A stretch of 64,000 nucleotides of DNA, taken from positions 4,471,248-4,535,247 of the forward strand of contig BFEA01000007.1 of assembly GCA_003427395.1 (NCBI GenBank), given 5' to 3'. The position numbers and the translations under genes are program-made. The notes beneath the pieces were generated by a model, which saw nothing but the letters and a program-made list of their open reading frames with translations, had not been told where the DNA came from and searched no databases. This DNA is from Chara braunii (taxonomy: Eukaryota; Plantae; Charophyceae). How positions within the stretch are numbered: position 1 is the first letter of the stretch; the number at the start of each line of letters is the position of its first letter. This document shows, piece after piece, positions 2,983 to 34,934 of this stretch.

Positions 2983-4428
2983 GTGCAAACGAGACTCCGA
3001 ACCGCTAGCCATCGACTGTTTGGCAGATTCGGAGGGTGCTCACTGAGCCATCCGTCGAGGGACCTGCACATGTTCCTTTCCAGCAGGCTGACTGAACAGA
3101 CCCCAATGCCAATGTTTCGCTCGGGACCTCATCCCTTTCTGCTCTCAATAAAACGCCTCTGGACCTTGGATCTTGGGAGACCCTTTTTCTCAAGGGTGTT
3201 CCTATGCCCGAGTGGCAGTGCGCGGTATCTGCTGCCCCCATAAAATTCGAAATTCAAAAGTTCATCCCATCTCCGTCCCTTCCACACACAAAGGGATAAG
3301 GGGAAGGACCGGTGTAGGCCAAACCCCGGTAGACTTTCGAGCCTTGGTCGACCCCACTACGGGTCCCAAATGGCTCGGCCCGCCCACGCTCATGCTCAGG
3401 GCGCGGGCCGTTCGTCGCAGGGTCACCCCCACCTAGTGCTTTGAGATGGATTGGGGTGGGCCATCGTGCGAGAGGGCTTTGACATTGGGGATGTAGCTCA
3501 GCCCTCACGCCGGGTGGTAGTCTCGCTGGTGATTTTCGCAAGCGCAAGTTTTTTATTCTTGATTATGTTCGCAGGCAATTGCTCCTTCCAATACTCAGGC
3601 AGTCCAAGGGGGTTTATTGAGAATTCCTCTTCTTTATGTACGTAGGCTAAGCGCCATCCTTAGGCCACGCACCATTTTCCTAAACACAGCAGTCCTGCGA
3701 CATCATCGGGGTGCGGTACCGCCGTCTTTCTACTAGCCCCCCGCCTTTTTTTTTTCTTGGTTTGACACATGCATCCCATCCATAGTTTCATTGCCTGCCC
3801 TTAGTCTTTCGGGGCTTTCATGTTGCATGCAAAGAATCACTCCACTCTTTCATCATGCAAGGCCACACCCCTCCCTCGATCCTTTGCCCAAAGCATCATA
3901 AACCAAAACCTGCCGCGGTAGAGTTCACACTGGGGCCTACGGCCCCTCCACTCGTTCATCTCTCCCCCCTTTCGCGTGCGTGTCCCTGACTCAGTCCCGC
4001 TCAAGTCATCCCGAGCTACTCACCTTCACCGTCCCACACAAAGGCAAAGACCGGTACAATCCCCAATTGGGGTCAACACATAGCCCTTCCCGCATGCCTA
4101 CTTTTCTTTCGATGCTTTGTCTTGCCCCATTCCTTTTGTCAAACACAACCAAGCTCTCTTCTTTTCATAGTCATGCGGTGCGGGTTCTATTTGAGTCAAC
4201 TGACCTTGCTTCAAGTTATATTTTTTCCAGAACTTTGTCTCCTCTCAGTCTTTCAAATGTCCTTCCTCTTCCTCCTTGGCGGCACAAGGGACCGACAACC
4301 CTTCCCTTGCCCTCTTTCTCCACCAAGTGAGGACTGTTTTCTTTCATCGTTCGTTCCCTGACAATGAAACAAGGAGAGTGGTGTAGGGTTAGTTATACGC
4401 CAATTGGTGGAGGAGAGACAAAGAGCGA

Positions 4429-4431
<3 letters not shown>

Positions 4432-4503
<72 letters not shown>
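4432..4503 (+). repeat. (GA)n microsatellite in LTR (counterpart ~33806-33862)
   Basis: Visible dinucleotide run. Confidence 0.95.
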
Positions 4504-4507
<4 letters not shown>

Positions 4508-4649
4508 AAGAATAGGTGAGAGAGAAAAAGAATAGGTGAGAGGGAGCAGAGAGGATGAGAGCGAGGGAGAGATAGGAAGAGAGAGAGGGAGAGAAAGATA
4601 AGGAAGGAGAGGGAAAATGGCAACTAGTCCTAATCAAATCATTCGTCCG

Positions 4650-4792
4650 TAATAGCAGCCAAATGTCGGCCACTCATCCCACAGTTGTAGCAGCCAAATG
4701 CCGGTCACCCATCCTGCAGTTTTAACAGCCAAATGTCGGTCACCCATCCCACAGTTGTAGCAGCCGAATGTTGGTCACCCATCCCACAGTTG
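4650..4792 (+). repeat. ~34-bp tandem repeat (GTAGCAGCCAAATGTCGGTCACCCATCCCACAGTT); also ~4998-5100 and ~34005-34145
   Basis: 3-4 adjacent copies at each site. Confidence 0.9.
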
Positions 4793-5328
4793 AAGAACAA
4801 TTAAGTGTGAAACGGAACACTACAACACACATGATTTTGACAAGGTGAAGGTTGAATAGATGAAAGCACATGCTCATGAGTGGAAAAGCAAACAAGTGTG
4901 AAACGGAACACTACCACTCACATGGACTTGAGGGAGAGAAAGAGAAGGAAGGAGAGGGAAAAGAGCAACTAGTCCTAATCAAATCATTCGTCCGTAAGAG
5001 CAGCCAAATTTCGGTCACTCATCCCACAACAGTAGCAGTCAAATGTCGGTCACCCATCCCACAGTTGTAGCAACCAAATGTCGGTCACCCATCCCACAGT
5101 TGAAGAACAATTAAGTGTGAAACGGAACACTACCACACACATGATCTTGACAAGGTGAAGGTTGAATAGATGAAAGCACATGCTCATGACTGGAAGAGCA
5201 AACAAGTGTGAAACGAAACACTATCACCCACATGGACTTGACAAATTGAAGGTCGAACTAGTGAAAGCACATGCTCATGGGTGGAAGAACAAATAAGTGC
5301 GGAACGGAATACTATCACACACATGAAC

Positions 5329-6303
5329 GAGAGATGGTTAACCGGTGCATATATTTTCAGGTCTCCTTTCCAGGCAGTTCAGCCACTGTAGGTTACTACA
5401 CCACTTTCAGATTGTGTGTGAATCTATATATGGGGTTGCCTGAAACCCCCTTCAGGCAGTTCAACCACTTCAGGTTGATACACCACTTTCAGATTCCCTA
5501 CAGATCCATTGCAAATGGTGGGATGGGGGTACCTGAAACCCCTTTCAGAAGCTTCAGCCACTTCAGCGGTTTCAGGTCCCCACCTGAAATTCCTGAAATG
5601 ACCTGAAGTGGCTGAAGCTTTTGAAAGGGGTTTCAGGTACCCCCATCCAACCATTTGGATGGGGGTGCCTGAAACCCCTTTTTAAAAGCTTCACCCACTT
5701 CAGCAGTTTCAGGTCCCCACCTGAAATTCTTGAAATGACCTGACGTGGCTAAAGCTTCTGAAAGGGGTTTCAGGTACCCCCATCCAACCATTTGGATGAT
5801 GGTACTTGAAACCCCTTTCAGAAGTTTCAGCCACTTCAGCGGTTTCAGGTCCCCACCTGAAATTCCTGAAATGACCTGAAGTGGTTGAAGCTTCTGAAAG
5901 GGGTTTCAGGTACCAATTCCAACCATTTGGATGGGGGTACCTGAAACCCCATTTAGAAGCTTAAGCCACTTCAGCGGTTTCAGATTGAAATTCCGGAAAT
6001 GACATGAAGTGGCTGAAACTTTTGAAAGGGGTTTCAGATATCCCCATCCAAGCATTTGGATGCGGGTATCTGAATTCCCATTCAGAAGCTTCAACCACTT
6101 CAGCAGTTTCAGGCCCCCACCTGAAATTCATTAAATGATATGAAGTGGCTGAAAAAACAGACAGGAAAAAAAAAAAAAAACCTTGTCATGCAAACCACCC
6201 GAAACTTTTGAAATGACCTAAGTGTCTTTAGGCTATTTCAGCGGTTTCGGACCACTTCAGAATCTTTCATTCTGAAATTCTACGTGGTCGTTAACCGCGA
6301 GTG
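5329..6303. mobile_element. Non-autonomous DNA transposon (GGTTAAC-end family) with ~136-bp palindromic internal repeats
   Basis: Absent from the 5' LTR copy (34273-34290). GGTTAAC at positions 8-14 from both ends. 8-bp TSD ACATGAAC/ACATGCAT. Confidence 0.85.
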
Positions 6304-6311
6304 ACATGCAT

Positions 6312-7745
6312 TTGGCAAGTGAGAGTGAGAGTAGTGAAAGATCAACATATAAGAAGTTGAACAACTAAATGAGAACCGGAACACTACCGAGACTACAGAC
6401 TTGAAAAGGTGAGAGTAAGCACATACACATGAGAAGTTGAACAACCAAATGAGAACCGGAATATTACAAAGTCATGAACTTGACAAGATGAGATAAAACA
6501 CATACACATGAGAAGGTGAACAGCCAAATGAGAACCGGAACACTACTAAGAGTATGAACTTGACAAGGTGAGGGTGAAAGCACATACATATGAGAAGTTG
6601 AACAGCCAAGTGAGAACCGGAACACTACTAAGTCATGGACTTGACAAGATGAGGGAAAACACATACATATGAGAAGTTGAACAACCAAGTGAGAACCGAA
6701 ACACTACTAAGTCATGAAGTTGACAAGATGAGAGAAAGCACATACATATGAGAAGTTGAACAACCAGGTGAGAACCAGAACACTACCAAGAGTTTGAACT
6801 TGGCAAAGTGAGAGTAAGCACATACACATGAGAAGTTGAACAGCCAAATGAGAACCGAAATACTACTAAGTCATGAACTTCCCAAGATGAGAGAAAACAT
6901 ATACACATGAGAAGTTGAGTAACCAAGTGAGAACCAAAACACTACTAAGTCATGAAGTTGACAAGATCAGAGAAAACACATATATATGAGAAGTTGAACA
7001 AGTAATTGAGAACCGGAACACTACCAAGAGTACGAACCTGACAAGGTGAGAATAAGCACATACACATGAGAAGTTGAACAACCAAATGAGAACCGGAATA
7101 CTACCATGTTATGAGATTGACAAGATAAGAGAACGTACATACACATGAGAAGTTGAACAGCCAAATGAAAACCAGAACACTACTAAGAGTATGAGCTTGA
7201 CAAGGTCAGGGTGAAAACACGTACACATGAGAAGTTTAACAGCCAAGTAAGAACCGGAACACTTCTCAGTCATGAACTTGACAAGATGAGGGAAAACACA
7301 TACATGTGAGAAGTTGAACAGCCAAGTGAAAACCGGAACACTACTAAGTCATGAAGTTGACAAGATGAGAGAAAACACATACATATGAGAAGTTAAACAG
7401 CGAAGTGAGAATCGGAACACTACCAAGAGTTTGAACTTGACAAAGTGAGAGTAAGCACATACACATGAGACGTTGAACAACCAAATAAGAACCGAAATAC
7501 TACTAAGTCATGAATTTGACAAGATGAGAGAAAGCACATACACATGAGAAGTTGAACAGCCGAGTGAGAACCGGAATACTACGAAGTTATGAAGTTGACA
7601 AGATGGGAGAAAGCACATACATATGAGAAGTTGAACAACTAATTGAGAACCGGAACACTACCAAGAGTACGAACCTGACAAGGTGAGAGTAAGCACATAC
7701 ACATGAGAAGTTGAACAGCCAAATGAGAACCGGAATACTACCATG
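6312..7745 (+). repeat. ~80-bp tandem array (~18 monomers) with 8-mer higher-order period of ~637 bp
   Basis: GAGAACCGGAACACTAC recurs every 79-81 bp; variant order repeats at 6371, 7008 and 7644. Confidence 0.9.
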
Positions 7746-8465
7746 AGTTTGATCTTGACAAAGTGAAGATTGAACTAGTGAAAGCACATGTACATGGGTG
7801 AAAGAACAACCAAGTGTGAAACGGAACACTACCACATACATGAACTTGACAAAGTGAAGGTTAAACTAGTGAAAGCACATGCACGTGAGGGGAAGAGTCA
7901 TCAAGCGTGAAACGGAACACTACAACACACATCATCTTGATAAGGCGAAGGTTCAACTAGTGAAAGCACATGCACATGAATGAAAAAGCAACAAAGTGTG
8001 AATCAGAACACTACCACATGCTTGAACTTGACAAAACGAAGGTTGAACTAGTGAAAGCACACGCACATGAACGAAAAAGCAACCAAGTGTGAAACGGAAT
8101 ACTACCACATGCTTGAACTTGACAATATAAAGGTTGAACTATTGAAAGCACACGAACATGAGCGGAAAAGCAACCGAGTGTGAAACGGAACACTACAACA
8201 CACATGAACTTGACAAAGTGAAGATTAAACTAGTGAAAGTACATGCACATGAGTGGAAGGGCAACCAAGTGTGAAACGGAACACTCCAGCACACATGAAC
8301 TTGACAAGGTGAAGGTTGAACTAGTGAAGGCACATGCACATGAGTGGAAGAGCAACCAAGTGTGAAAGGAAACACTACAACACACATGAGCTTGACAAAA
8401 TGAAGGTTGAACTAGTGAAAGCACATGCACATGAGTGGAAGAGTCACCAAGTGTGAAACGGAACA
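7746..8465 (+). repeat. ~91-bp tandem array (also 4793-5328, 34146-34280)
   Basis: AAGTGTGAAACGGAACACTAC...GAACTAGTGAAAGCACATG recurs at ~91 bp. Confidence 0.9.
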
Positions 8466-10405
8466 CGACTTAACTACTATGTGATTGAAAGCATGGGCTA
8501 GACTAGATCAAAACCCAAGATTGGAGCATGACAAGCAATCAAGAATCAATTGGGACATCACGTACTAGTATGTGAATGAATAGTATGAACTAGACTAGAT
8601 CAAAGCACAAGATTGAAGCATGAGATGACCTAAGGAAGAATCGAGACATCACTAATTACTATATGAGTGAAAAACACGAGTTAGACTAGATCAAAACACA
8701 AGTTTGAAGCACGAGATCATCCAAGGAAGAAGCGGAACATCACCTACTGTCATGTGAGTGAAAAACATGAGTTAGACTCAGATCAAATCACAAGATTGAA
8801 GCATTAGATCAACCAAGGAAGAATCGGGACATCACCTACTACTATGTGGAGGAAAAGCATGAGCTAGACTAGAGAAAAACACAAGATTGAAGCATGAGAT
8901 AATCCAAGGAAGAAGCGGAACATCACCTACTATCATGTGAGTGAAAAACATGAGTTAGACTAGATCAAAACACAAGATTGAAGCATGAGATCAACCAAGG
9001 AAGAATCAGGGCATCACCTACTACCATGTGAGTGAAAAACATGAGCTAGACTAGATCAAAACACAAGTTTGAAGCATGAGACCAACCACGGAAAAATCGA
9101 GATATCACCATGTACAATATGAATGAAAAACATAAGTTAGACTAAATCAAAACACAAGTTTGAAGCTTGAGATTAACCAAAGGAAGAATCGGGACATCAC
9201 CTACTATTATATTAAAGAAAAGCATGAGCTAGACTAGATCAAAACACAAGTTTGAAGCATGAGATCAACCAAGGAAGAATGTGAACATCACCAATTACTA
9301 TATGAGTGAAAAGCATGAGCTACACTAGATCAAAACATAAGTTTGAAGCATGAGATCAACCAAGGAAAAATTTGAACATCACCAACTATCATGTGAGTGA
9401 AAAGCATGAGCTAGACCAGATCAAAACACAAGTTTGAGGCATGAGATCAACCAAGGAAGAATCAGAACATCACCAATTACTATATGAGTGGAAAGCATGT
9501 GCTAGACTCGATTAAAACACAAGTTTGAAGCATGAGATCAACCAAGGAAGAATCGGAACATCACCAACTATTATGTGAGTGAAAAGCATGAGCTAGACCA
9601 GATCAAAACACAAGTTTGAAGCATGAGATCAACCAAGGAAGAATCGGGACATCACCTACTACCATGTGAGTGGAAAGCGTGAGCTAGACTAGAGAAAAAC
9701 ACAAGATTGAGGCATGAGATCATCCAAGGAAGAAGCGGAACATCTACTATCATGTGAGTGAAAAGCATGAGTTAGACTAGATCAAAACACAAGATTGAAG
9801 TATGAGATAAACCAAGGAAGAATCGAGACATCATATGTGAAGGAAAAACATGAACTATACTAGAGAAAAACACAAGATTAAAACATGAGATCATCCAAGG
9901 AAGAAGCAGAACATCACCTACTATCGTGTGAGTGAAAAACATGAGTAAGAATAGATCAAAACACAAGATTGAAGCGTGAGATCAACCAGGGAAGAATCGG
10001 GACATCACCTACTACTATGTGAGTGAAAAACATGAGCTAGACTAGAGAAAAATACAAAATTGAAGGATGAGATCATCCAAGGAAGAAGCGGAACATCATC
10101 TACTATCATGTGAGTGAAAAGCATAACTTAGACTAGATCAAAACACAAGATTGAAGCGTGAGATCAACCAAGGAAGAATCGGGACATCACCTACTACTCT
10201 GTGAAGGAAAAGCATGAGCTAGACTAGAGAAAAACGCAAGATTGAAGCATGAGATTATCCAAGGAAAAAGTGGAACATCACCTACTATCATGTTAGTGAA
10301 AAGCATGAGTTAGACTAGATCAAAACACAAGATTGAAGCATGAGATCATCCAAGGAAGAATCGGAACATCACCTACGACTATGTGAGTGAAAAAGCATGA
10401 GCTCG
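8466..10405 (+). repeat. ~88-90-bp tandem array (~22 monomers)
   Basis: TAGACTAGATCAAAACACAAGATTGAAGCATGAGATCAACCAAGGAAGAATCGG recurs regularly. Confidence 0.92.
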
Positions 10406-10419
10406 GCTAGGGTCTCTAG

Positions 10420-10471
10420 GAAGGAGAAGAGGAAGAATAAGAAGAAGAAGATAAAGAAGAAGGAGAAGAAA

Positions 10472-10503
<32 letters not shown>

Positions 10504-10682
10504 GAAGAAGAAGAAGAAGAGAGTCAAGAAGAAGAAAAAGAAGAAGAAAACGAAGAAGAAGAAGAGGAAGAAGAAGAAGAGGAAGAAGGAGAAGCAGAAG
10601 AAGAACAAGAAGAAGAAGAAGAAGAAAAAGAAGAAGAAGGAGGAAAAAGAAAAAGAAGAAGAAGAAGAAGGAGAAGGAGAAA
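10420..10682 (+). repeat. (AAG)n/(AAT)n low-complexity tract
   Basis: Visible trinucleotide runs. Confidence 0.95.
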
Positions 10683-11133
10683 GATCTCCTCCTTTCCACT
10701 TACCTCCTTGAGGTCTTGGAGATGGAGCCCCAACCTTGATGAAGCTTCTTCTCTCTTGCCCAAGTACCACCTTGGCTATGACTCTCTTCTTCATCAAGCC
10801 CTTCGCTCCTTCCTCTCTCAACTCTACCCAAGCTATGACAAATTTCTCCTATTATGGCTATGGAGTCCTCCCCTCTAGAAGGGCTAGTGAGACTCTCTCT
10901 AGCCTCTCTCTCTTCCTCACACCCTGGGGGGCTATGGCGGATCACCTCCCTATGCAAGCCTCACCTCCACTAACCTTTAGAGCTCTCTCTCCTAGCTCAC
11001 AGTCTCCTCTAAGCTCTCCAACTGGTAGGGGTTCCACTCTCCTCTCTCCAAGTGAAAAAGTGTTCTTATGAGCTCACTTGGGCAACATGGGCACTCCTCA
11101 TGCAAATGCGAGTGTGACGGACTGTATCCTCAA

Positions 11134-11143
11134 CTTATATAGG
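11134..11143 (-). promoter_or_regulatory. Putative LTR TATA box (CCTATATAAG)
   Basis: Plant TATA consensus in element orientation within the putative 3' LTR. Confidence 0.4.
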
Positions 11144-12093
11144 TTGAAACCAGCACTCCGGCCAGCCCATGGGCCTCCCCATGTGCCTTGAGGTGAACTG
11201 AGGTACCCCCAAGGCAAAATTTCACCACTAGGCCCTTCCGGAGGTACCTGGGCCTTATTTTGGCCAAGTACATGGAGTCCGAGTGATTGGTAGCAACTCG
11301 GATTGCCTCTTGGTCTCCTTCAGCATCTTTTCTATTTCAAAATGTTGCCCCCCTTGGGTCCTAATGCCCAAGGGGCAACCCTATATGAGAAAAAAAAACC
11401 TAGTGAACCGTTTTCTCAATTTTTTAAGTTTCTACCCCATTTTTAGTAGGCCGAGGTATTTTTTCATTCCTCGGTGCAATTTCAGCATTGCCTTGGATCT
11501 GGTTGAGATCCAATGCCAACAATATTCCGAGTTACCCCCAAGTAACCCTTGCTTCAGATTTGGGCCCCTAAGTTCAATTTTTCAACTTTTGGTACATTTG
11601 GCTCTCTTTTTGGGCCAAATGCACAATTTTATCTCTTTCCCTCTTTTATTTCTTTGCATTTTGGGCTGCCACCTCATTCCGAAGCTGACCATTTTGAGCT
11701 GGCCCACAAAAACGGTTAGTTCCTCTCCACCATGAGATCGGATCTCAGATCTATGACCATTCCATTTGCATTTTCTTTTAGGGTCATATCTCTGTAATCC
11801 GGATTGCCCTCCCCCATTCTAGGAGGGATGAGGTCACAGTTGGGACCTGTCAGTCCCTACTGTGCGGTTCCCAATAGGCCGACACATTCTCCTTTACTCT
11901 TTTCTCCCCTTTGTCTCATTCTTCCTCAATTTTCTTTCATTTTTTTATTTTTTATTTTTATTTTTGATGTGACAAGTGTCAATTAGCCGTTGAGTCTTCT
12001 TCTAGGTGATGGATCTTCATCCATGGCCAGATTCAGATTCAGCAGTTAACCGTTATATCTCGAATTACAATAGTGACACCCCCATGCTCCTAG

Positions 12094-12582
12094 AAGAGAC
12101 GGTTAACGGAGACCTCAATTTTCGGACAACTTGTCAGGTCATTTATAACAAAATCCAAGGGTCATTTTAACCAAACTTGTCATCGATTCAGAGAGTGGAG
12201 ATCATACTAACTACTTACAAAAACAAAATTGAAAAAAAAACTTTAAAAAGTTATAAAATAGCAAGGGAAAAATGTGTTTTCATGCAAAATTCACTCATTT
12301 CGGTTTTCAGGGTTTTCAGGATTTTTCAGGACTAGCCAAAATAGTCAATTCTAGGACCCTAACAAACACCAAACTTGGCACACATAGACCTTGACCAAAA
12401 ATAAAACAGGACAAAAAAAAAAAACAGAAAAAATTAAAAAAAATGATCTTCAATGCACTTTTCAAGGTTGAGGGGGTTAATCAGGGCTGAAAAAAAAAAA
12501 AAAAAATGATCTCCAATACACTTTTCAGGGTTGAGGGGGTTAACCAGGGCTGAAAAGTGGGGGTCCCTGTTAACCGCTTGTG
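12094..12582. mobile_element. MITE of GGTTAAC-end family with perfect 8-bp TSD
   Basis: GCTCCTAG at 12086-12093 and 12583-12590; ends AAGAGACGGTTAAC ... GTTAACCGCTTGTG. Confidence 0.9.
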
Positions 12583-14192
12583 GCTCCTAGGGGGCTTCAT
12601 TTTGTCTCCGTTATTCCTAATTTTCAGCCCCCAATGCTCCGATTTTCTTTGGACAGCCTATTATCTCATGCCTAACTAGTCCGGGATATCTCGGACTGCT
12701 GGGCAGCCCTCCTTGCACCATTATTCCACTTCCTTTTCTCTCATGACTCTCTCACTTGTCCCCACTAGTGGTGCTAATATTTTCTACGGTATAGATCCTC
12801 GATCTTGAAGGCGCCATTTGCTTTGTGCAATTATTTCTTTTGTTGGCTCATGGTTCCCTTTGGACATCTCAAGTCCCCGCCACTTTCCCCGTACTAATCC
12901 CGTTTTCTTCTCCCGCTGGTAGTCCGACCAGTAGTCCCGCCGGCGCATACCCCATTTTTTCACTATTATTATTTGGACCACTTACTCCCCGACAACATCC
13001 CGGATGGTGTCCCATTTTTATTTTGGGACCTCATTGCCCTTGGTGACTCCAATATCCCTTTCTTAGGTGCCACATGTGTGCCGATTTTTCTTTGTCGCGA
13101 GATCTCATCTCATGGTTGTCGTTTACCGTCTTTTCTTGCCCCGTGTCAAAATCACTTATCTCTAGCCTTTTGGGCTTGTCGTGGCCTATTTTCTTTTACC
13201 CTAGGCATCCTTATGCAGTCCGTTATTTCTCGGACTGCAATCGTGGTCATTTCCCTGGTCCCACAACCCCACAACTTGCCCCACACTAAAAGAAAATGAA
13301 ACGTTTAATTCCCAAGTGCATCCGGGCTCAATGTTGATTTCGGATGCACTTAAAACATGTGTTTTCCCTTCCCCATGCAGTCCGTTGCAACTCGGACTGC
13401 AATAGGGGTCAATTCCCTAGCCCCAATGCCCCACAACTAGCCCTCAACAGACAACGTCCAAGTGCATCCAGACTCAATTTTGGCTCCGGATGCACCTAAA
13501 ACATGTGTTTCTCCTTCCCCATGTAATCCGTTGTATTTCGGTTGCATGGGGCCTTAATTTTTCTTGATTTTCTTTGCAAAATCAAAAGAAAATCAAGGTC
13601 CTTTGCAACCACCATATTCCAGGATGAATTTGGTCATGGATGTATCTCTTCAAGTGACTGTTTTGACCGTGAAGGTCTTTTTCTCTTTTCTTTATTTTCT
13701 TTTATTTTCTTTTTCTTTTTCTTCCTTTCTTGGACAGTAGGGACCTGCCGGTCCCTACTTGTGGCAGTCCCCACTGACGGCCAACTCACTCACTCTCTCT
13801 TACTTTTTTTGTCTTATTCTCCCATTTGGTTTTTTTTTTTCTTTTTTTTTTCTTAGCATGCCAAGTGTCAAGTGGTCGTTAAGGCTCTTTTCTAGGCGCT
13901 CCCTCTTAGTTTTGACCCTTCCTATGCCCAAGATGCAGTCCGTTATATCTCGGACTGCAATAATGGCCTCCTCATGCCCATGGGAGCTTCCTTGTACCTT
14001 TATTTTTCTCCCACAGTGGCGCCTCCTACTCCGATTTTCTCCCGGATGCCTATTTTTTACATGGGGACTCTTTTGACTCAATTTTCTCGAGGGAGGATGA
14101 TCCAAGATTTTTCGGATTGCTCTCATGCCTCCCACTTCAAGTTTCTTTACTTTTTCTTTTCATTTTGGCATTCCTGTTCCGCCAGTGGTCTC

Positions 14193-14440
14193 GACACTTT
14201 GTCCCGCCGATGGTCCCCGACACCTTGTCCTATCGGCGGTCCCCAATACTTTTTCCCGTCGGCGGTCCCCGACACTTTGTCCCGTCGGCGGTTCTCGACA
14301 CTTAGTCCCGCCGGTGGTTCCAAACACTTTGTCCCGTCGGCGGTTCTCGACACTTAGTCCCGCCGGCGGTCCCCGACACTTAGTCCCGCCAGTGGTCCCC
14401 GACACTTAGTCCCACCGGTGGTCCCTGACATATTTTGTCC
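14193..14440 (+). repeat. 26-bp GC-rich tandem repeat (~9 copies)
   Basis: GACACTTWGTCCCGYCGGYGGTYCCC recurs every 26 bp. Confidence 0.9.
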
Positions 14441-15214
14441 CAGATACTATTATTTTTTACTTAGTCTCACGTAACCCCTGATGCCTTTCCCCCCAAGGTG
14501 TCCCACGTTCCTTGGGCGTCTGTCGCTCCATGGCGACCCCTTGTCTTTTCTCGGGCTTCGCGGGCGTCGGTTTTCTCCGACCGCGGGGTCTTCAATCCGA
14601 GGCTCCTGCTAATTGTCATGAGCGGTCCCCATGTTGGCCCCTTATTTTCTAGCGTCCCATGGTCACCGGGGCCGTCCACCTCCCGGCTGCCTTATTCTCT
14701 CGTCGTCCGCCGCGCCGCATTTTGAAAGTTGACGGCCCCTCAGCCTTAGTCATGCCGAATTTCAACGGCCCTCCTGGCCTCATGTTATACCCCTATGCGC
14801 CAATGTCCTCGCGCTTACTTGCTTGTCGTCGCTGGTTCTTTCCCCCTGCAGTTCTCAACCCAGGGCACCGTTCCTTCCGGCAGCCTAGTCCATTGTTTTT
14901 TTTTTCTCTCTCGTCTCCTTACGCCATATTTCTCTGTAGTGCAGAAAGTGGCTATATACAGATTCTCGAGTGACGAGATGTTATTCAGGACCCACAGGTC
15001 CCGACACATTCCCCTCACTCATTTGCGATGTTCTCATCGCGCACTAGTCCTTTGTCAGTAGGGAGCGAGGAGGAGAGACGTGATGGGTAGTTAGTTTGTC
15101 AGGGTCCTTTTTGTCTTTTCCTTGTTTCTTTCCCAAGGTCTCTTCTTGTCTTCGCTCCTTGGGGCGGGGAGGGGTGTGTGGAGGGTCGAATTCTCTTTGT
15201 CTTTCGGGTTTCTC

Positions 15215-21939: not shown

Positions 21940-23072
21940 GGTCTGAACGGCGACTTCTCATTCCTCCGTCCAATCGAGCGAACCCTCTTCGCGAATCATG
22001 GTCCGGATGGGCTCTGCTATCTTAGTGAATCCTTTGATGAAGATCCTCCAGAACCTCACGACCCCTAGGAAGACCCTTACCTCCGTTGTAGTCCGCAAGG
22101 GCGTCGACCATTGAGAAATTTTATCAATCTTCGTTGGGTCGGGCTTTCTTCCATACGACCCGTAACGGCATCCTATGAATCTATGATAGTTACTTTTGGA
22201 ACTGCCAGGATGATCTTGGGGCCACTAGCAGTGATGTTATATTCCAGAAACCTTCCGAAAAGTTCTTTAATATCCTGCTGGTGGTCTCACACAAATTTAC
22301 ATACCCCTGGTTGAATTTTCGTCTCATCCTTGTCTCGCGAACCCTTGATCGGATTGTCATCAATGTATGGCTCGCACTTTGCGGGGAACATATCTCCCGC
22401 AACTGCGAGCATCCTTCTTTGTGCTTTTGCCACGACATTGGTGAAGCCCATATGAGTCACTTGCATTTGCAATTGCCCTACCGAGGTATGCATAGTCGTG
22501 TAAGGTCTATCCCGGGCGCCCAGCGGGAGCTGATCATACCCAGAATAGAGGTCTATCAATGAATAAATGCTTCGTCTGGCGTGAGATTCTGCCAGCAGGT
22601 CTGCTTGAGGCAGTGATCCCGCATCTCGGATGATGACAACATTCAATTTCTGCAGATCCTGGATCCACCTAAGCGACTTGTTAGGTTTCCGGAATACAAA
22701 CCACTTATTTGCATATGGTGAGGCGGTGGACTCTGCAACTAAGGAGTCCATCTTTGCTCCAAGGAGTTTTATTACTTCCCCTGCCACCCCAAAGTCGTAG
22801 GCAGGCCCTTTGTCGTTCCAGCATTCGTGCTCGACTGTGTGGATCTTGACCGGGGGTATCAGCTTCGCATCTAGTCGTCCCTTTTGATGGTCGTTAAAAA
22901 CAAAAGCTAGATGGAATTCATGGCATGCTTCCTTGATCAGGCATGCCTCCCGTTCTGTCAAAAATCCTTCAACCCCTATCTTCATGGTCTTTGCTACCTC
23001 GTCTGGTATTCGATGCCCTTCTGTTGCCATTTTTTCCCTAATCACCCGGAGCACTTCCTCCTCCTTTTCCAT
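21940..23072 (-). pseudogene. pol: Gypsy reverse transcriptase, disrupted
   Basis: SPYANKWFVFRKPNKSLRWIQDLQKLN, YSLIDLYSGYDQ, MGFTN, PYIDD. Confidence 0.95.
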
Positions 23073-23125
23073 GGCTTCTTCCTTTGTTGTTTTTAGCAGG
23101 ACCGAGACAGGCTTGGCTTTCTTTC

Positions 23126-24368
23126 CTACTGGCTTGTACTTGCGAATGCTTCCTTCCAGGATCTTTCTCCTAAAAAATGAACGGCTGGAATTGCCCGTGG
23201 TGTCTCGACCATTCGAGGCTGGATACTGATCAATTTTCCATTTAGGCAGTAACCCCTTTGGACTTCTCCCTCAAACTTGGCGAGTGTGGTCGGGTTCACA
23301 CCCATTTTGTGGTACCTGATGACTTTGATGAGGTGCAGTAGGTCCGGAACTTCCAGTGTTATCCGGGCCTCCTCATCTCGGGCCTCCTTCGGTCTACGCA
23401 ACTTGGCTCCCAATTCGACCTCTGTCTCTTTCTCTACTACCATTACTCCTAGGGCATCGTCCTCATGTCTGCGCTTTTTCTGTGGTAGCCCCATTTTGAT
23501 CCACTCCTTTTTGTTGAATGCTTCTTCGATCATAATTTCTACCCTTTTATCTCATCCCTTTCATCCGCGCGAAGGCCCCCTTTCTTGCGCTCTCTTCAAA
23601 TGATGGTGACCATGTTGCTAATTTTCCCTTTGGCGTGTCCCCGCCTGTTCCAATGAGACGGAGCAGCTCCCCACGTCCTGTCACCGGGTCTTCTATGTCT
23701 ACCATGTATGTCCCATCATGCAGGTGCATTCCTATCATCTTCACATTTGCACACCAAGGTCTCTCAAGGATTACGTCGTGATCCATCTCGTCCATCACGG
23801 TCATCCGCTGGAAGGACCAAATTGACTCCCAGACCCCAGCTTTGACTGCCTACTTAGTAACATACCCAGAGAAGGGAATTTCCCCGCCTGCCCCTCGGAT
23901 GCTTCCAGTTGTTTCCTTATTTATTGGGCATCTCGTAGCCTTTGCAAAATCTTTCCTGATGAGCGTAATCTCAGCCCCGCCGTCTACCAATGTGTCAGTA
24001 TGGTGACGTCCGACCTGGACTTTCAACTTGCCTACAGGTAGTGCATGAAAACTAAGCTTCGTTCCGGGTGGCGCTCTCATAACTTCGCCGCCTTCCTGGT
24101 CGGGCAGGCTTAGTTGGATGTCTGCGAAAACCTTTTCCAGGTCTTCTAGGTCTCTGGGAATCCTTTGAAGGTTGGCGGCCTCTTGCGGTGCCTCTTCCTC
24201 CTTTTCCTCCCCCTGCGGTTGCGGTCCTTCCTCTACTTCTATTCTTTGTCTTGTCAGCAACTGCCTGAGGCCTTTTAGGAGCCTAGGGCTTGCCTGCAAC
24301 ATGGTTTGAAACGAGACCGACACCATGGTTTCTAGCAGTTTGTTAAGGGTGTCGTCGATCTCGAGCAT
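23126..24368 (-). pseudogene. pol: Retropepsin-like aspartic protease and spacer, disrupted
   Basis: LVDGGAEITLI active-site motif, IRGAGG flap, DVILERPW (ILG.PW-like). Confidence 0.88.
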
Positions 24369-24601
24369 AGCCAGAATAGGGATCTGGTACCGAAACTTCT
24401 TTTTCGTCGAGGTTGCTTTGTCTATCGGGGCTTCATCTCTAGGCTTACCGTAAACCCTTTCCTATTTCTGCGCCTCAGTTTCCTGCGGTGCTCCCGGACC
24501 ATCCCCTACATCTTCCATGACTGCGTCCTTACGTTTACCCGGTCTCGGTCGTCGCTTTCTAAGATAAAGTTGACCTGCGGTCCGCGTCCTCGTGCCTGTT
24601 C

Positions 24602-26361
24602 CTAGACAAGATCCGCCACGGTCTCGGCTTCTACCGTGGTGACGTCAAGATTGTTGAGTGCTATTACGACCCGGCGCATTCCTTCCGGGGAGTTCCAATT
24701 TACCTTCTCTCCTTGGGGACCTATGATTTTCCCTCGCAGCGTCCTAGAGCACCTTTTGTGCATGATATCGTGGTTGAGCTTTGGACATGCGCGCACATAG
24801 TGTCCAACCAGCGTGCAATATTTGCACTGCTTATTGGCTGAATCTCTTCTATTGATCCCTCGGCTAACTATTCCTGTCGGAGCCACAACTTCTTGTGGTG
24901 GTAAGGGGGGTCGCACCGCCTGGTTTTGCATCACCTGGGCTTGCATCACCATTAGTGCATTTTCTACCCTCTCGATTTTCCCATCTACCTCATGGACACG
25001 CTCATGCAGGCTTTCAATCCCTTTTTTTACCTTGTCAACCATCTTGCCGGTTAGGTCTATGACCTCTCCCTCCTTCAGCATGGCCAGCGAGTCGGTTACA
25101 ACCATCTTCTCCGCGATATCTGTTATGGTACTGAAGCCAACGTCCCTCGTGTTCAAAAACTTCGTGGTCTGTTGGTAGGCGGACATGATCTTATCCTTAT
25201 CAAATTCGGTGAATTGCCTGAGGAAGTACTTGCTCATTATCTGGTCGGTTACCCCCGGGATGCGCAACGCCATGAGAGTCAATTCCCTCAGGAAATCGTT
25301 ATATGTTGCAAAGTTCTTTCTTTGCACCGCGGCCAGCTCTGTCTCCGTAGCCATTTTCTAGGCCGCCAGATATTTCCGCATCATTATGTCCCTGGCCTCC
25401 TTCCAGGATCCGCTGGTTGCGACAATAAACATTATATCCCTCCCTAGGTTCAATGACACATGTTGCCCTAAGTGTTCCATCTTCTCTTCCTCACTCCACT
25501 TTAGAAGTGCTGCCAAGTTCTCATAGTCTATCAAGAATTTTGTGCGATTGGCCCCATCGAATGTCAGCTTCTTCTTGGCATCCGCCAAGTACCCCTGATT
25601 TTTATTTAGTGCACACGTGAGGAAGAACACCATTTTCTTAAGTCCCCCATCGGTCCCTCTTATTCCACCAGCGTTGTCGGAGCCTTGTTCTTCCTTACCA
25701 GCCCCCGCCCCTTCTCCGGGCTTTGTTGTTCCTTCTTGGTCGAACCATCCTAGCACCCTCTATCTTAAGCTCCAGAGCCCCTCGCACCCCCTTGCGATTA
25801 TCGATGACACCGCTGGCCGGCTTGCCCCGCTATCTATGGCCGGCGGGTAGGTAGTCTTGGAGATTTTGTTTTCTCCTTTCTTTTCTTGGTTGGCGCCTCC
25901 CTATGCTCCCCAGCCGTATCCTTCTTCCTTTTTATGACATCATCTCGGCTTCCCCGCCCCTGGTTTGTTTCTTCATTCGGCCTTTCTCCGGCGAAGTCCC
26001 CCTCTCCTTCGTTCATCATTTCCTCCAAGAGTTTTGCTTTATATTTCGTCGTTCTCCTTTCTATCTCAGCTAGTTTCTTCTGGGTGTCCGTTAGTCTCAC
26101 CTTCTTTGACAGTGCGCCCTCAGATGCCCGCCGCGCCGGATTCCCTTTATTCTTATCTCCTCTAGTTTCCTGAGTTCCTCGTTTACTCCGTCCGACTTTT
26201 TTGGAACTTTCCCCGGTTGTCACGTCCTTTCTTCCCTCTGTAGTCCCTTCTGGATTTGCCGACTCTCGGTCCCTTACGGATCCCTCGTTCTGTTCTACGT
26301 CTTTTTCCATGTCCTGACTTCCTTTGCGCCGCAGGTTCCCAGCCTCTTCCTCTGTCGCCAT
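24602..26361 (-). pseudogene. gag: Gag with CCHC zinc knuckle, split by stops/frameshifts
   Basis: CKYCTLVGHYVRAC (C-x2-C-x4-H-x4-C), FDGAN.TKFL.DYE capsid-like motif, charged N-terminal segment from ATG 26361. Confidence 0.88.
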
Positions 26362-26408
26362 CCTTTTCTAATCCTGCACATAGAATTTTTCTTTTCGAAA
26401 ATGGCCAG

Positions 26409-26942: not shown

Positions 26943-27726
26943 TCACACCGGTTCCTCAGGCCGGTCCTGTTCGTTAGGTTCTACGAACAGGTTAGCCACC
27001 CCCGCAAGGTAATTTTCCCCCATTCCTATTTCTCTGATAATTATTGACTCGTATTCTTCAAAAGCCAGGCGTGGCGCCCCGAATATCAGGATCTCGATGA
27101 GTTCTAGTAATTCACGGGTCTGGTTTTCCCAAAACGGCCCGTGTCTTACCGACACGTCATAAAACATTCCCGTTGTTTGTGGTTGGAAATGGTGGATCCA
27201 GGTTAGGGTTGAGTACACCAAGTCCCTCGCCCTCGAGAGGCTGCCGAATACCAGATCGATCATGAAGCGGGGTACTTGACACCGCAACCCTGCCATCGGG
27301 ACTCTGAATTCTCGCCATCCTCCTACTTCCCCCCGAGTTCTTAGTCCCACATTTCTTCTCCCCCGGACTTCCTAACCTATCCGATTTAGTGCCCTAGCCG
27401 CCCTCCGAAAGATTCGCAGCAGCCCATGCCCTAGTGCCACCTCGGTACCTAGCATGTGCCATCCAATTTCCGGTAGATACACGGTCCCCGTCACCCTCAG
27501 GTCGGTGCATAAATCGTCTCCTGGTCCCCTGTTGAATCTCATACCGCTCCACATATATTCTACCATCATGAAGGTGGTCCCGCCCTAAGGTCACAACTCT
27601 CCATTCCGTTTCAAGTCCTCAGACTTCATAGCTTGTCGGGAGCGGTACCTCGCATTCGTTACTGCCTTCCGTGGGTGGTCGAGGATGCGTGGGTCGTCGC
27701 GACGTTCGGGTGCGTCTCATCGCCAT
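26943..27726 (-). pseudogene. Accessory paralogue D (unknown family), disrupted
   Basis: MAMRR...EVPLPT; GTVYLPEIGWH; GGWREFRVP; YDVSVRHGPFWEN; EIGMGENYL. Confidence 0.75.
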
Positions 27727-27868: not shown

Positions 27869-28641
27869 TCAGCCTACCTCTTCCTCCGGTGACTCGAACA
27901 AATGATAGACATCGTCTAGGTAGGTCATTCCGCGATTTACTTCGTGCCTAATGATTTCCCACATGGTCTCATCACTTATTCGCAAAATCCCTTGTCTAGT
28001 AGTCACGGCCGCCCGTAATATACACAGGACTTCATATCCCGGTTCATCCTCAAAGGGTCCCATTTTTAGGAAGGTCCGATAGTACTCTCGATATACTGAT
28101 ATTTCTTCAAAGCTTAGCCTAGTCAATGCGGCTACCGCCTTCTCAACTCGTTTCGCGCCTCCCATTCGTCTTAGTAGGAAGGTGGCAGGGTCATCCGAAC
28201 GATCTCGGTTGGCAGGTCAAAGGTTCCTGCCATGACAATTCCTACTTCCGCCGTTACATTGTCCCGTTCCAGATCCGTGAACTCAAACCCTTCTCGCCAG
28301 GTTATTTGCCATGCTCCTTTGAACATTCACAAGGGGTCACCTCCGGAGGCCAAGGTGATCCCAAAGGTCTACCATCCTTCCTCTGACAAGTATAGCGATC
28401 CCGCGGCATGCACACGTTCTGGGAGATCCAAATTCACGCCCCCGAATGCCCCTTTCGCACACCATTCCATTTCCACTACTAAGTATACTGTGTCTTCCAC
28501 CAACTCTACCCCTACCCAATCCATTATCGGGTTGCTTACCCCACTTTTTGCTGGCAGACTCATCTCAAACCTGCCGTCCAATGTTCTTGGCGGCAGAATC
28601 CCGCGAGGTCTGTCCTCCCAAAACGTCATTCGCCGAGCCAT
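27869..28641 (-). pseudogene. Accessory paralogue C (unknown family), disrupted
   Basis: MARR...FEMSLP; GSLYLSEEGW; YYRTFLKMGPFEDE; EVNRGMTYL. Confidence 0.75.
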
Positions 28642-28842: not shown

Positions 28843-29594
28843 TCATACCCATAGTACCTCGAACAATAGGAACACGTCACCTATATAGGAAGGGGTCGCT
28901 GCCACCTCTCGACGGAGTATTGCATCCCCGGTCTTGTCATCCACTTCGAGCCGGTCTTCCTTGAAAATTTTCAGGATCTCGACTACTTCCTTTGCCCTAT
29001 CTCCAGGGAAGGGTCCTTCCTCTAGCGAAATCCGGTAGTAAGCATCAGCCAATCATGCGAATCCTAAGTCCACCTCATCCAGAGACTTTGCCACCGCGCG
29101 GATATGTTCAAACCCGCCGAACCAATCTGCCACGAAGCGCAGCAACCAAGCTTGGACTAACTGGTACGGCAGCCTAAGCTCCTTCCATCCACCTATCACG
29201 ACCCTACTGTTCACAGCATCCCAACCTTTGTTGGCAAAGTCATAGCCCATGCCCTGAGTCCGGCGCTCGGCCTCCCTTAAGATCCACATCGGGTTTTGCC
29301 CGGATGCTAATGCTACACAGAACAGATGCCAACCCTTCTCCGACAGGTACACCGTTCCGAGGGCTTCCACATTCCCTTCGTCTATGTCATCCCATCCTTC
29401 CTCCTCCCTGACCGGATTCCATACCCTCTCTACCCATAGAATGACAATGCAGGCGCAATCTCCTCCTCTACCCAGTCGCAAACCGTCCCTTGCCATTTGT
29501 TTCTTGTCGGCAAGGTCATTTCTACCCCCCCTTCAAGTCGTCTTGGCGCCCATCCTCTAAACATTCGCTCCCTTACGCTCTGTCCTCTAGCCAT
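28843..29594 (-). pseudogene. Accessory paralogue B (unknown family), disrupted
   Basis: MARG...VEMTLPT; GTVYLSEKGWH; GGWKELRLP; YYRISLEEGPFPGD; EVAATPSYI. Confidence 0.75.
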
Positions 29595-29621
29595 GCCTGT
29601 CCCCTGTACAACGCCAACCAT

Positions 29622-30504
29622 TCACGCCGCCCATGAGCCCATCCCTCGGAAGTCCCAATCCTTAATCGCCTCATCCTCTTCTTCCTCGGTGAGATAGTCT
29701 TCTTCCTCATACCACAGGTCCTTTAGCCCCTCTAGAAATGTTTCCCCGATTGCCACATTCTTGTAGACTATTTTCCAGTGGACGGTGCTTAGGACAAACA
29801 CGTCGTCCGTGCAGAGACAGTTTAGTGTCTCGGCTAGCTCCCTCGCCCAGTTCTCTTCGAAGGGTCCCATCTCGACCGATAGACGGAAGAAGTCATGTCG
29901 GGCACCTTGGTACAGCCCGAGGTTCCTCATGGACTGGCATATCCGCACCAGCCTACTCCGGGTCCCGAAGACAGCATCCACCAAAAAGGGGGGCAACACA
30001 CATCTCATCGTTTTGACGGGACGCCTCACGCTCCCCCTATCCCCGAGTTCCACTCACACGTCTACCCTTTCCATTTCCATTTCTGCCTGTTGACATGCGG
30101 CTCATACAACCTCTCTTTCCTCCTTCCTAAGCCATTCGTCCGGCATAGTTCCTAGTACCAAGTCTATGACTATAGCGTTCTCCCCTTTTTGCGACAAGTA
30201 GAGTCAATTAGTAGACCCACCCTCGGGCTTCCACCGTCCCTCGGAACTCCAAATCCATTAGGCTTGGCGACAACCTTGTCAGACTGACCTTATTCCATAT
30301 CGTTTCTATCCAAAGGAATGCATCCTCCTCGTCCAGCATTACGGTTTGATAGGCTGGCTCTAGATCTGTCCACGTTCCTTCTTTCGAGAGAACGACCGAT
30401 ACCCCATCCTTTACATCTACCGGCATTTTCGGACTGCTGGTATAGATCGGGGATGACAAGTTGACAACCACATCTTGTTTGCAGCACCCGACCCCTGCTT
30501 CCAT
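29622..30504 (-). pseudogene. Accessory paralogue A (unknown family), disrupted
   Basis: LWIETIWN, VEARGWVY; PPFLVDAVFG; FFRLSVEMGPFEENWAREL; NVAIGETFL. Confidence 0.72.
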
Positions 30505-32149: not shown

Positions 32150-32168
32150 ATACCCGACATCTCCACCC
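32150..32168 (-). promoter_or_regulatory. Primer-binding site complementary to tRNA-Ala 3' end
   Basis: Plus strand ATACCCGACATCTCCACCC versus recalled plant tRNA-Ala 3' end ATACCCCGCATCTCCACCA; 4 nt inside the LTR edge. Confidence 0.8.
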
Positions 32169-32172
32169 TTTT

Positions 32173-33801
32173 TGTAGGGCCAAACCCCGGTAGACTTTCG
32201 AGCCTTGGTCAACCCCACTGCGGGTCCCAGTTGGCTCGGTCCACCCACGCTCATGCTCAGGGAGCGGGCCGTTCGCCGCAGGGTCACCTCCACCTAGTGT
32301 TTTGAGATGGATGGGGGCGGGTCATCGCGCGAGAGGGCTTTGACATTGGGGATGTAGTTCAACCCTCACGCCGGGTGGTAGTCTCGCTGGTGATTTTCGC
32401 AAAAGCAAATTTTTTATTCTTGATTATGTTTGCAGGCAATTGCTCCTTCTAATACTCAGGCAGTCCAAGAAGGTTTATTCAAAATTTCTCTTCTTTATGT
32501 GCGTAGGCTAAGCGTCATCCTTAGGCCATGCACCATTTTCCTAAACACAACAGTCCTACGACATCATCCGGGTGCGGTACCGCCGTCTTTCCCCTAGCCC
32601 CCCGCCTATTTATTTTTTTTGTTTGACACATGCATCCCGTCCATAGTTCCGTTGCCTGCCCTTCAACGGAAAAATTTCCTAAAATTAAATAATCATTCTA
32701 TCGTAAAATTACCATCTGAATTTTAAAATTTCATTTCATCTTAAAAAATATCATTCAAATTTTAAAATTTTTCATCTGACTTGCAAACTTTCATTCCAAA
32801 AATAGGGTATCCCTTCTTATTTGGACTGCATTTTAGAGATGGAATGAAAGTCTGGATGAGTTCATGAAATATTTTAATTGGGCTGTCATTCTAAGTAAGG
32901 ATTTACAATCATTAATAGGTTAATCCAATCCAAATTAGAAGATATTTGTTGTAGTGGAATGAAAATTTAATTAAAATATTTCATAAACTCGTCCAGGCTT
33001 TCATTCCATCTTGAACAAATAGATGTAGTTGGAATGGAAAGCTCATATTTAGACGGGAATGTATCAGATAAAACTGAAAATTTTAGAGTTGGACAAGCAT
33101 TGGAATGATAATTTATTAATATGAAGGATTTTTTTTATGGAATGTTTTTTCAACTTTCATTTCTTGTGGGAATTTTTCTGTTGTTACTCTTTCCGGGCTT
33201 TCACGTTGCATGCAAAAAATCACTCCACTCTTTCATCATGCAAGGCCACGCCCCTCCTTCGATCCTTTGCCCAAAGCATCTTACACCAAGACCTGTCGCG
33301 GTAGAGTTTACACTGGGGCCTAAGGCCCCTCCACTCCTTCACCTCTCCCCCCTTTCGCCTGCGTGTCCGTGACCCAGTCCCGCTCAAGTCATCCCAAAGA
33401 GCGAAGGCAAAGACCGGTACAATCCTCTATTGGGGTCAACATATAGCCCTTCCCGCATGCCTACTTTTCCTTCGATGCTTTATCTTGCCCCATTCCTTTT
33501 GTCAAACACAACCAAGCTCTCTTCTTTTCATAGTCATGCAGTCCGGGTTCTGGTTGAGTCAACTGACCTTGCTTCAAGTTATACTTTTTCCCGGACTTTG
33601 CCTCCTCTCAGTCTTTCAAATGTCCTTCCTCTTTCCTTCTCTACGGCACAAGGGACCGACAACCCTTCCCTTGCCCTCTTTCTCCACCAAGTGACGACTG
33701 TTTTCTTTCACCGTTCGTTCCCTGTCACTGTAACAAGGTGAGTGGTGTAGGGTTATGTTTACGCCAAAGGGTGTAGGAGAGAGAGAGATAGCGAGATGAG
33801 G

Positions 33802-33873
<72 letters not shown>

Positions 33874-34934
33874 GAGAGAGATAGTAGGTGAGAGGGAGGA
33901 GAGAGGATGAGAGCGAGGAAGAGATAGGAAGAGGGAGAGAGAAAAAAAAAAGAACGAAGGAGAGGGAGAAAGGCAACTAGTCCTAATCAAATCATTCGTC
34001 CGTAGTCGCAGCCAAATGTCGGTCACCCATCCCACAGTTGTAGCAGCCAAATGTCGGTCACCCATCCCTCAGTTGTAGCAGCCAAATGCCGGTCAGCCAT
34101 CCCACAGTTGTAGCAGCCAAATGTCGGTCACCCATCCCACAGTTGAAGAATAAATAAGTGTGAAACGGAACACTACCACTCACATGAACGTGACAAAGTG
34201 AAGGTCGAACTAGTGAAAGCACATGCTTATGGGTGGAAGAACAACTAAGTGCGGAACGGAATACTACCACACACATGAACTTGGCAAGTGAGAGTGACAG
34301 TAGTAAAAGCTCAATACATGAGAAGTTGAACAGCCAAATGAGAACCGGAGCACTACCACGAGTACGAACTTGACAAGGTGAGAATAAGCACATACACATG
34401 AGAAGTTGAACAACCAAATGAGAACCGGAATACTACCAAGTCATGAACTTGACAAGATGAGAGAAAGCACATACACATAAGAAGTTGAACAGCCAAATGA
34501 GAACCGGAACACTACTAAGAGTATGGATTTGACAAGGTGAGGGTGAAAGCACATACACATGAGAAGTTGAACAGCCAAGGGAGAACCGGAACACTACTAA
34601 GTCATGAACTTGACAAGATGAGGGAAAACACATACATATGAGAAGTTGAATAGCCAAGTGAGAACCGGAATACTACTAAGTCATGAAGTTGACAAAATGA
34701 GAGAAAGCACATACATATGAGAAGTTGAACAGCCAAGTGAGGACCGGAACACTACCAAGAGTTTGAACTTGACAAAGTGAGAGTAAGCACATACACATGA
34801 GAAGTTGAACAACCAAAAGAGAACCGGATTACTACTAAGTCATGAACTTGACAAGATGAGAGAAAACACATATACATGAGAAGTTGAACAGCCAGGTGAG
34901 AACCGGAACACTCCTAAGTCATGAAGTTGACAAG
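32173..34934 (-). repeat. 5' LTR remnant (U5 side), truncated at 34934
   Basis: Roughly 90% similar by eye to 3313-6965, with the same repeat arrays. Confidence 0.88.
32664..33183. mobile_element. AT-rich MITE with ~16-bp TIR and 2-bp TSD (TT), possibly CACTA/CMC-like
   Basis: Absent from the 3' LTR at ~3802; ends CAACGGAAAAATTTCC ... GGGAATTTTTCTGTTG. Confidence 0.8.

Follow-up and report, generated by a model that had tools for sequence, protein, structure and literature searches.

A Ty3/Gypsy retrotransposon of at least 30 kb in Chara braunii, with a long terminal repeat of probably about 10 kb

Introduction

How long is the Ty3/Gypsy retrotransposon that lies on the minus strand of contig BFEA01000007.1 of the charophyte Chara braunii, and where does its long terminal repeat (LTR) begin? 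The question arises in a stretch of 64,000 nucleotides (the window; assembly GCA_003427395.1, forward-strand positions 4,471,248 to 4,535,247; all coordinates below are those of the window), for which a first-pass annotation, made from the letters alone, had proposed a Gypsy element of more than 40 kb with an LTR of ~11.7–13.1 kb. Our analysis gives an element of at least 30 kb, likely ~37.6 kb, with an LTR that likely runs from 15008 to 3313 and measures ~10.2 kb without later MITEs (miniature inverted-repeat transposable elements), a reading that we hold with fair confidence. New here are a cassette of four paralogous accessory open reading frames (ORFs), a site of 15 nt with complementarity to the tRNA-Ala 5' end and a duplicated module of hairpin and polypurine tract (PPT). 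The first-pass annotation had reported neither the four paralogous ORFs nor this tRNA site, nor an ORF that follows integrase.

Identity and minimum length of the element

The reverse transcriptase (RT) of this minus-strand Ty3/Gypsy element is 69–83% identical to its top 40 C. braunii proteins and, with the RT frame 22290–23270 (minus strand) as query, 126 proteins were matched, 116 of the 120 listed being named Chara braunii. By these sequence comparisons, the element belongs to an abundant Chara Ty3/Gypsy family, of which it is a decayed copy. Its minus-strand order is LTR end, primer-binding site (PBS), the four accessory ORFs, gag, pol, the extra ORF, two PPT modules, a long non-coding region and LTR end, the internal region from PBS to the first PPT module (PPT1) being 17.2 kb.

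The matching LTR edges noted earlier at 3313 and 32173 were recovered as a direct repeat (3313–6965 versus 32173–34934) in three colinear self-BLAST blocks of 87–92% identity, with CA at the minus-strand terminus of both copies and a Kimura two-parameter (K2P) distance between them of 0.087–0.090 in four of four blocks. The surviving 3' part of the 5' LTR (32173–34934, minus strand) carries a 520-bp insertion bounded by terminal inverted repeats (TIRs; 32664–33183) and is broken off inside another repeat at 34934; the direct repeat thus proves only 2.7 kb of LTR (2.76 kb of surviving 5' LTR), and in the remainder of the window, to the right, self-BLAST found no second copy of the 7–15 kb sequence. 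With the 5' LTR cut at 34934, LTR length has to be deduced and is not read directly, and, the outer end of that LTR being missing, there is no target-site duplication (TSD). A fragment of a repeat with 147-bp palindromic arrays adjoins the truncated 5' LTR; this repeat occupies 34931–36236, 45864–47657 and 58185–59706, and its arrays are kin to the 136-bp array of one of the MITEs described below.

From one LTR end to the other, the distance is 28,860 bp (27,380 bp net of two MITEs), so the element measures at least ~30 kb for any LTR start, and its description as a giant Gypsy element holds. As total length equals the net period plus one LTR, the proven minimum is 30.0 kb; the element would be 31.6 kb if the LTR takes in the shared arrays up to 8466, and, net of MITEs, 37.6 kb for a start at 15008 (PPT1) or 39.1 kb for a start at 16467 (PPT2). 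The earlier figure of more than 40 kb, which counted the later MITEs in both LTRs, is not retained. From the K2P distance, insertion would date to ~6 My ago, with a rate of 7e-9 borrowed from Arabidopsis as quoted in a preprint on Penium; afterwards, three small insertions with TIRs would have entered the element, and the outer part of its 5' LTR would have been deleted.

Position of the LTR start

PPT-like motifs had been described only at 15009 and 16468. A loose scan of 6966–20000 found 19 sites with a purine tract followed by TG, including 11036 and 13788, and an additional A-rich PPT-like tract at 11886. What sets positions 15009 and 16468 apart is a hairpin+PPT+TGTGTC module that both possess (alignment z 7.6) and that is family-wide at both sites: PPT1 with its upstream hairpin (15009–15040, minus strand), the favoured plus-strand primer, and PPT2 with a homologous hairpin (16468–16502, minus strand). 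Between the two modules lie 38-bp and 59-bp arrays (15218–16409), the 59-bp part being rare in the family. The sequence (TGTCGGGACC) that follows PPT1 imperfectly repeats the LTR end (TGTAGGGCC) in inverted orientation, and the sequence after PPT2 has no such likeness to the LTR end.

Further indications came from the tandem arrays and from read depth. The 79-bp and 91-bp(A) arrays (6345–8466) are built of units akin to each other, and both units are found in the 5' LTR (z 10.5 and 16.1), which makes these arrays LTR-native. For depth, reads and contigs were mapped onto 10700–24500 (at 80%) and onto 14300–17000, so that depth data begin at 10700; sets X1, X3 and X4 come from one sample, X1 consisting of contigs and X6 of raw reads. 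X1 depth was 10–33 k at 10.7–14.4 kb, then 5.8 k and 2.7 k in two successive bins, 0.4–0.7 k at 15.3–16.2 kb, 3–4 k at 16.2–18.1 kb, 30–230 at 18.1–19.9 kb and 0.4–2.4 k in pol (single-copy contigs, ~8–13). The X6 profile had the same shape, with 39–100 over 10.7–14.4 kb versus 6–20 in pol; X6 was used as depth only, since its reads are equal on both strands and mirror the DNA profile. The deepest part, 10.7–14.4 kb, is as expected of LTRs plus solo LTRs. Among the 24 loose ends listed for 10700–24500 (6,358 more exist), low-agreement piles (0.31–0.45; X1, X4 and X6) occurred solely at MITE ends. At the nearest reported sites, depth on the LTR side and inner side of PPT1 was 5186/3245, 6898/2180 and 45/29 in X1, X3 and X6, respectively (1.6x, 3.2x and 1.6x), and that of PPT2 was 1461/3067, 944/2364 and 13/54 (0.48x, 0.40x and 0.24x). 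The terminal inverted-repeat match, read depth and LTR-native arrays together favour a start at 15008, which we regard as probable. In this reading, PPT1 would set the LTR start and PPT2, 1.45 kb upstream of it, would serve as a second, internal plus-strand origin, shortening the synthesis of a very long cDNA. Of the earlier claim of an ~11.7–13.1 kb LTR, a very long LTR is kept as the best reading of the evidence, and the 13.1-kb figure is the less likely one on account of depth and MITE inflation.

Several observations weigh against a start at 15008. The inverted-repeat match at PPT1 is modest (score 10), and other TG sites without a PPT score higher. A pile of loose ends with random flanks would be a direct sign of an LTR start, and its absence counts accordingly: none was seen at 15006–15008, nor at PPT2, among the 24 loose ends listed for 14300–17000 (1,165 more exist). 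Depth is not copy number, since copy number and divergence are mixed in it; the profile is spiky and follows divergence, with internal conserved spots at 16591 and 16845 reaching 18–19 k and only 0.75–2.7 k at 14482–14936. Strand composition switches at ~10.7 kb, the 91-bp(B) unit just below that point is weakly related to the LTR units (z 3.8 to 91A, 0.8 to the 79-bp unit), and neither reads nor gene models join 10.7–15 kb to the LTR end in another copy. Finally, the two LTR ends may derive from different copies, since there is no TSD and their 91% identity does not exceed what most family reads show.

An alternative is a shorter LTR of 4.2–7.6 kb, with its start somewhere in the interval from ~8.5 to ~11.9 kb (for instance after 11036 or 11886), with 11–18 kb as a long 3' non-coding region common to many non-autonomous copies and a total length of 31.5–35 kb. 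Purine tracts followed by TG are present at both sites, the sense-strand purine fraction is 0.51–0.70 from 18 kb down to 10.8 kb and then falls to 0.28–0.39, the inner conserved spots are almost as deep as the putative LTR, and the missing pile at 15008 points the same way. However, depth makes no step at 11036 or 11886, the nearby listed loose ends have 0.64–0.84 agreement, i.e., the family sequence goes on, and neither site has the conserved hairpin-PPT module, which leaves a shorter LTR unlikely.

We consider it still less likely that part of 7–15 kb came from outside or arose late (as an independent high-copy repeat, or through arrays that grew after insertion), or that the ends come from recombined copies, the mobile unit being then much smaller. 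The lack of a TSD, an LTR identity typical of unrelated family copies, array copy numbers that are unlike between the LTRs, and 91B/GAA junctions that fall outside read coverage would all agree with this. Against it, no TIR pair, LTR pair or coding relic was detected in 10.4–18.4 kb, K2P is uniform over the four blocks, and the part from PBS to PPT1 alone is 17.2 kb of colinear family sequence. The first-pass annotation had also left room for nested insertions inflating the LTR, and this is answered in part: in 10.7–24.5 kb, a single insertion with its own TSD and random flanks, a 489-bp MITE, was found among the loose ends listed. A start at PPT2 (16467; LTR of 11.7 kb net, element of 39 kb) is very improbable since, in spite of the more G-rich tract and the highly conserved region upstream of it, depth is lower and not higher on the LTR side (0.24–0.48x), 15392–16392 is mostly rare in the family, the terminal inverted-repeat match is lacking and the TG after the tract is lost in one loose-end pile.

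Composition of the LTR

With the start at 15008 (or 15006), the 3' LTR would span 3313–15008 on the minus strand, its end at 3313 being established by the direct repeat. The ~1.5 kb of later MITEs mentioned in the first-pass annotation was borne out as two insertions totalling 1,480 bp. MITE 1 (5329–6303), absent from the 5' LTR, has GGTTAAC termini, an internal 136-bp palindromic array and an 8-bp TSD matching at six of eight positions, and MITE 2 (12094–12582, 489 bp) has an exact 8-bp TSD and random flanks at other loci. Beyond the 79-bp and 91A arrays lie the 91-bp(B) array and a GAA microsatellite (8473–10681), followed by a very high-copy non-coding segment (10682–14480) with old internal duplications, which is likely LTR (U3). 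Family gene models have no exon in 3.3–18.4 kb. The bulk of the LTR would be U3/R, swollen by ~4 kb of minisatellite arrays and by old internal duplications.

Two AATAAA hexamers (3552–3618, minus strand) are kept in both LTRs (32413 and 32474 in the 5' LTR) at 240 and 300 nt from the LTR end; they are likely poly(A) signals, which would imply a short U5. Further poly(A)-like hexamers occur at 11.6–14.0 kb, and a TATA-like box at 11135. RNA reads, nearly all from other copies, number 152 in set X5, with a sense bias over 12.1–14.4 kb and too thin for transcript ends, and 25 in set X7. A pattern search for the LTR in metagenome contigs gave no match.

Two local resemblances were also noticed. 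A duplication of ~310 bp (4585–4931 versus 4930–5241) is present in the 3' LTR and absent from the 5' LTR, so LTR arrays alter after insertion, and the outer flank 3260–3312 resembles the LTR-internal sequence 4005–4056 (alignment score 27).

The tRNA-Ala primer

The PBS (32150–32168, minus strand) is separated from the LTR end by 4 nt and matches the tRNA-Ala 3' end, in agreement with the primer assigned by the first-pass annotation. We found, in addition, a second site, of 15 nt, with complementarity to the same tRNA's 5' end (3487–3501, minus strand), 175 nt from the LTR end and kept at 13 of 15 positions in the 5' LTR (32348–32362). A combined pattern of PBS core and 15-mer matched at least 120 loci, and all 40 scanned were tRNA-Ala genes; a eukaryote-type tRNA-Ala(AGC) fits both motifs. 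Since these loci were chosen by the motif itself, the result names the partner and does not demonstrate function, a point that also weighs against the proposal made here. None of 500 shuffles of the first 490 nt gave a match longer than 11 nt. The predicted duplex at the 15-nt site has –32.1 kcal/mol in the 3' LTR and –24.2 kcal/mol in the 5' LTR (13/15), with control duplexes in 113 windows at –15.5 ± 2.1 and a minimum of –21.0 kcal/mol, and the predicted PBS duplex has –29.3 kcal/mol without the CCA tail. ARAGORN detected no tRNA in the 64-kb window.

We propose that tRNA-Ala primes at the PBS and that its 5' arm likely pairs also with the 15-nt site, opening the tRNA; from the AATAAA positions, this site would fall in the short U5. 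The fungal element Ylt1 is reportedly also primed by tRNA-Ala. Two-site tRNA binding is described for Ty1 and Ty3 (PMC5371799) and for Drosophila gypsy (PMC1635307), where, as proposed here, a second site of the element pairs with another part of the primer tRNA. In contrast to these systems, the predicted second site in Chara pairs with tRNA nucleotides 1–15, and its place is within the LTR end, ~180 nt upstream of the PBS.

Accessory ORFs between PBS and gag

The four accessory ORFs, all broken and on the minus strand, are ORF a (29625–30459), ORF b (28858–29594), ORF c (27872–28641) and ORF d (26946–27690). They are tandem paralogs of ~240 amino acids located between PBS and gag, with ~22–37% protein identity; their paralogy is visible at the protein level only, as self-BLAST gave no DNA-level match among them. 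Other copies contain orthologs of each at 45–90% identity; of 304 proteins retrieved, 79 have one or more of these ORFs, and the order a<b<c<d is kept in 15 of the 16 proteins with two or more.

A profile search of 1.84 billion proteins returned 66 matches, and all ten looked up, eight of them chosen as the most distant, were from C. braunii; judged by these homologs, the family is seen only in Chara. An AlphaFold2 model (predicted local distance difference test 75, predicted template modelling score 0.67) consists of a beta-sheet followed by helices. Pfam had no real match in 22 family members, Foldseek gave none at E<=0.001 for the model against PDB and viral structures, and an Atlas search with the protein yielded no usable match. 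In VIA, the best match (Z 6.1) involved the helical C-terminal part only and lay within background, the N-terminal half being scarcely probed by this search.

Distant homologs of the accessory ORFs were found in other C. braunii gene models (P0294, P0297, P0298 and P0300–P0304), some ahead of gag-like sequence, which suggests that the domain predates the element family. The accessory proteins would have arisen by tandem duplication within the element and then been kept by selection. From position and size, our guess is that they are most likely host-interaction or anti-silencing factors rather than envelope proteins.

gag, pol and the ORF after integrase

The gag-pol region reported in the first-pass annotation is present on the minus strand in a broken state: gag with a CCHC zinc knuckle (24521–26367), and pol with protease (PR), RT, RNase H (RH) and integrase (IN) (19909–24461). 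The domain order gag-PR-RT-RH-IN is that of Gypsy, with frames interrupted by frameshifts and stops. After integrase, a 340-amino-acid open frame (18468–19490, minus strand), without Pfam match, is 32–51% identical to parts of 18 family proteins and is family-wide.

Neither a chromodomain nor an extra RNase H had been noticed earlier, and the domain searches agree: a chromodomain had no Pfam match in 20 window fragments and PF00385 was found in none of the 120 relatives listed, and the window holds only the RT-type RNase H, with no PF00075 among the 120 relatives listed.

Lineage and comparison with known giant elements

With the nearest non-Chara relative (37% identity) as query, the named rows among the 120 listed were 10 Riccia, 6 fungal and 7 Chara, and no seed-plant name appeared among the 120 relatives listed in either search (window RT or this relative). 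The window RT is 30–38% identical to its Riccia and fungal neighbours. A quick unrooted tree of 39 rows, built without P0017 and without labelled references (no Ylt1), placed it in a Chara-only clade of 17 rows (SH-aLRT 100), the deeper order being not settled. The nearest named relatives and the literature, rather than a labelled tree, speak for the earlier placement outside Athila/Tat.

Together with a weak DUF4100 match, the Riccia and fungal proteins, which are the named non-Chara neighbours of this RT type, recall Ylt1/SN_1006; the sequence placement fits this fungal side (PMC2864245), to which the element is not assigned. Ylt1 is given as 9.45 kb with LTRs of ~715 bp (PMC5014426). The liverwort Riccia sorocarpa holds numerous Gypsy copies (P0150–P0201), nearly identical to one another, that belong to this fungal-type RT group. 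Either ancient lineage sorting or transfer could explain how the RT group is distributed over Chara, Riccia and fungi.

For OTA elements (Ogre/Tat and Athila), Neumann et al. (2019; PMC6317226) give sizes of 4.4–24.1 kb and LTRs of at most ~5 kb, and Ogre LTRs are reported at 1.9–6.5 kb (PMC6431247); a survey of 40 algal species reports no Tat/Athila element (PMC10508981). The Chara element resembles these, in ways that are not diagnostic, in its great length, in the extra ORFs located 5' of gag, in LTRs that are probably very long, in non-coding tandem arrays and in the absence of a chromodomain, but differs from them in being at least 30 kb long, in lacking an extra RNase H and in its four paralogous extra ORFs. 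Burro of planarians is likewise described as Gypsy-like, longer than 30 kb, present in thousands of copies and endowed with accessory coding capacity, its size residing in an internal region of up to 25 kb with a polyprotein of ~4,900 amino acids (PMC6431247). In contrast, the Chara element has an internal region of 17.2 kb and separate small ORFs, and its size would lie largely in the LTR; no giant polyprotein of the Burro type with MATH, BIR, ankyrin or env-like domains was found in it or in the relatives searched.

Significance

Its size would place the element among the largest such elements described. A genomic RNA of at least 27 kb, together with a plus-strand strong-stop DNA whose likely length is ~10 kb, would extend the limits of packaging and processivity past Ogre (16–25 kb) and as far as Burro (>30 kb) or further. 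Giant elements of this size escape the usual LTR-search settings, as with the maximum LTR length of 6000 (maxlenltr) and maximum LTR distance of 25000 (maxdistltr) given in the Penium study. If so, a major Chara repeat would be mis-annotated, and ORFs of the element already lie inside many CBR_g gene models. The four-paralog cassette, a family so far encountered in Chara alone and predicted to be well folded, offers a testable handle on the extra ORFs of giant elements.

The portions of the literature covered by our survey (including PMC3485330, PMC8557442, PMC6947507, PMC11341676, bioRxiv 835561 and 2023.02.12.528195, with the C. braunii genome paper outside it) hold no description of the element or of a 10-kb LTR, and five supplement files of PMC6317226 contain no Chara match. 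Taken as a whole, we tentatively picture Chara as host to an undescribed high-copy Gypsy lineage of fungal/liverwort affinity, ~38 kb long with an ~10-kb LTR beyond the sizes given in reviews, carrying a tandem four-paralog cassette of a new fold family, with two-site tRNA-Ala capture and twin polypurine tracts coping with the length, a combination to which we give somewhat less than an even chance. The 2018 C. braunii genome paper of Nishiyama et al. reportedly mentions Gypsy-like repeats of 20–30 kb, a comparable size range in the same host genus, and may thus contain a prior mention.

Neighbouring sequence

The surroundings of the element may be a dead rDNA unit. At the left end of the window, 1–758 (minus strand) is a decayed 18S rRNA fragment (Rfam, 428 bits), and ~1520–1610 is presumably similar to an 18S 5' end, for which Rfam gave no confirmation; Rfam confirmed no further rDNA in 760–3400. 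To the right of the element, 36300–39550 is very AT-rich (GC 27–37%) and made of degenerate tandem arrays with a period of ~80–90 bp. Further on, 42579–53560 and 53763–63392 form a tandem duplication of ~11 kb, 86–97% identical with internal indels, which includes an assembly gap of 570 N (51355–51924) and a frame with a weak zf-RVT match (48974–49477).

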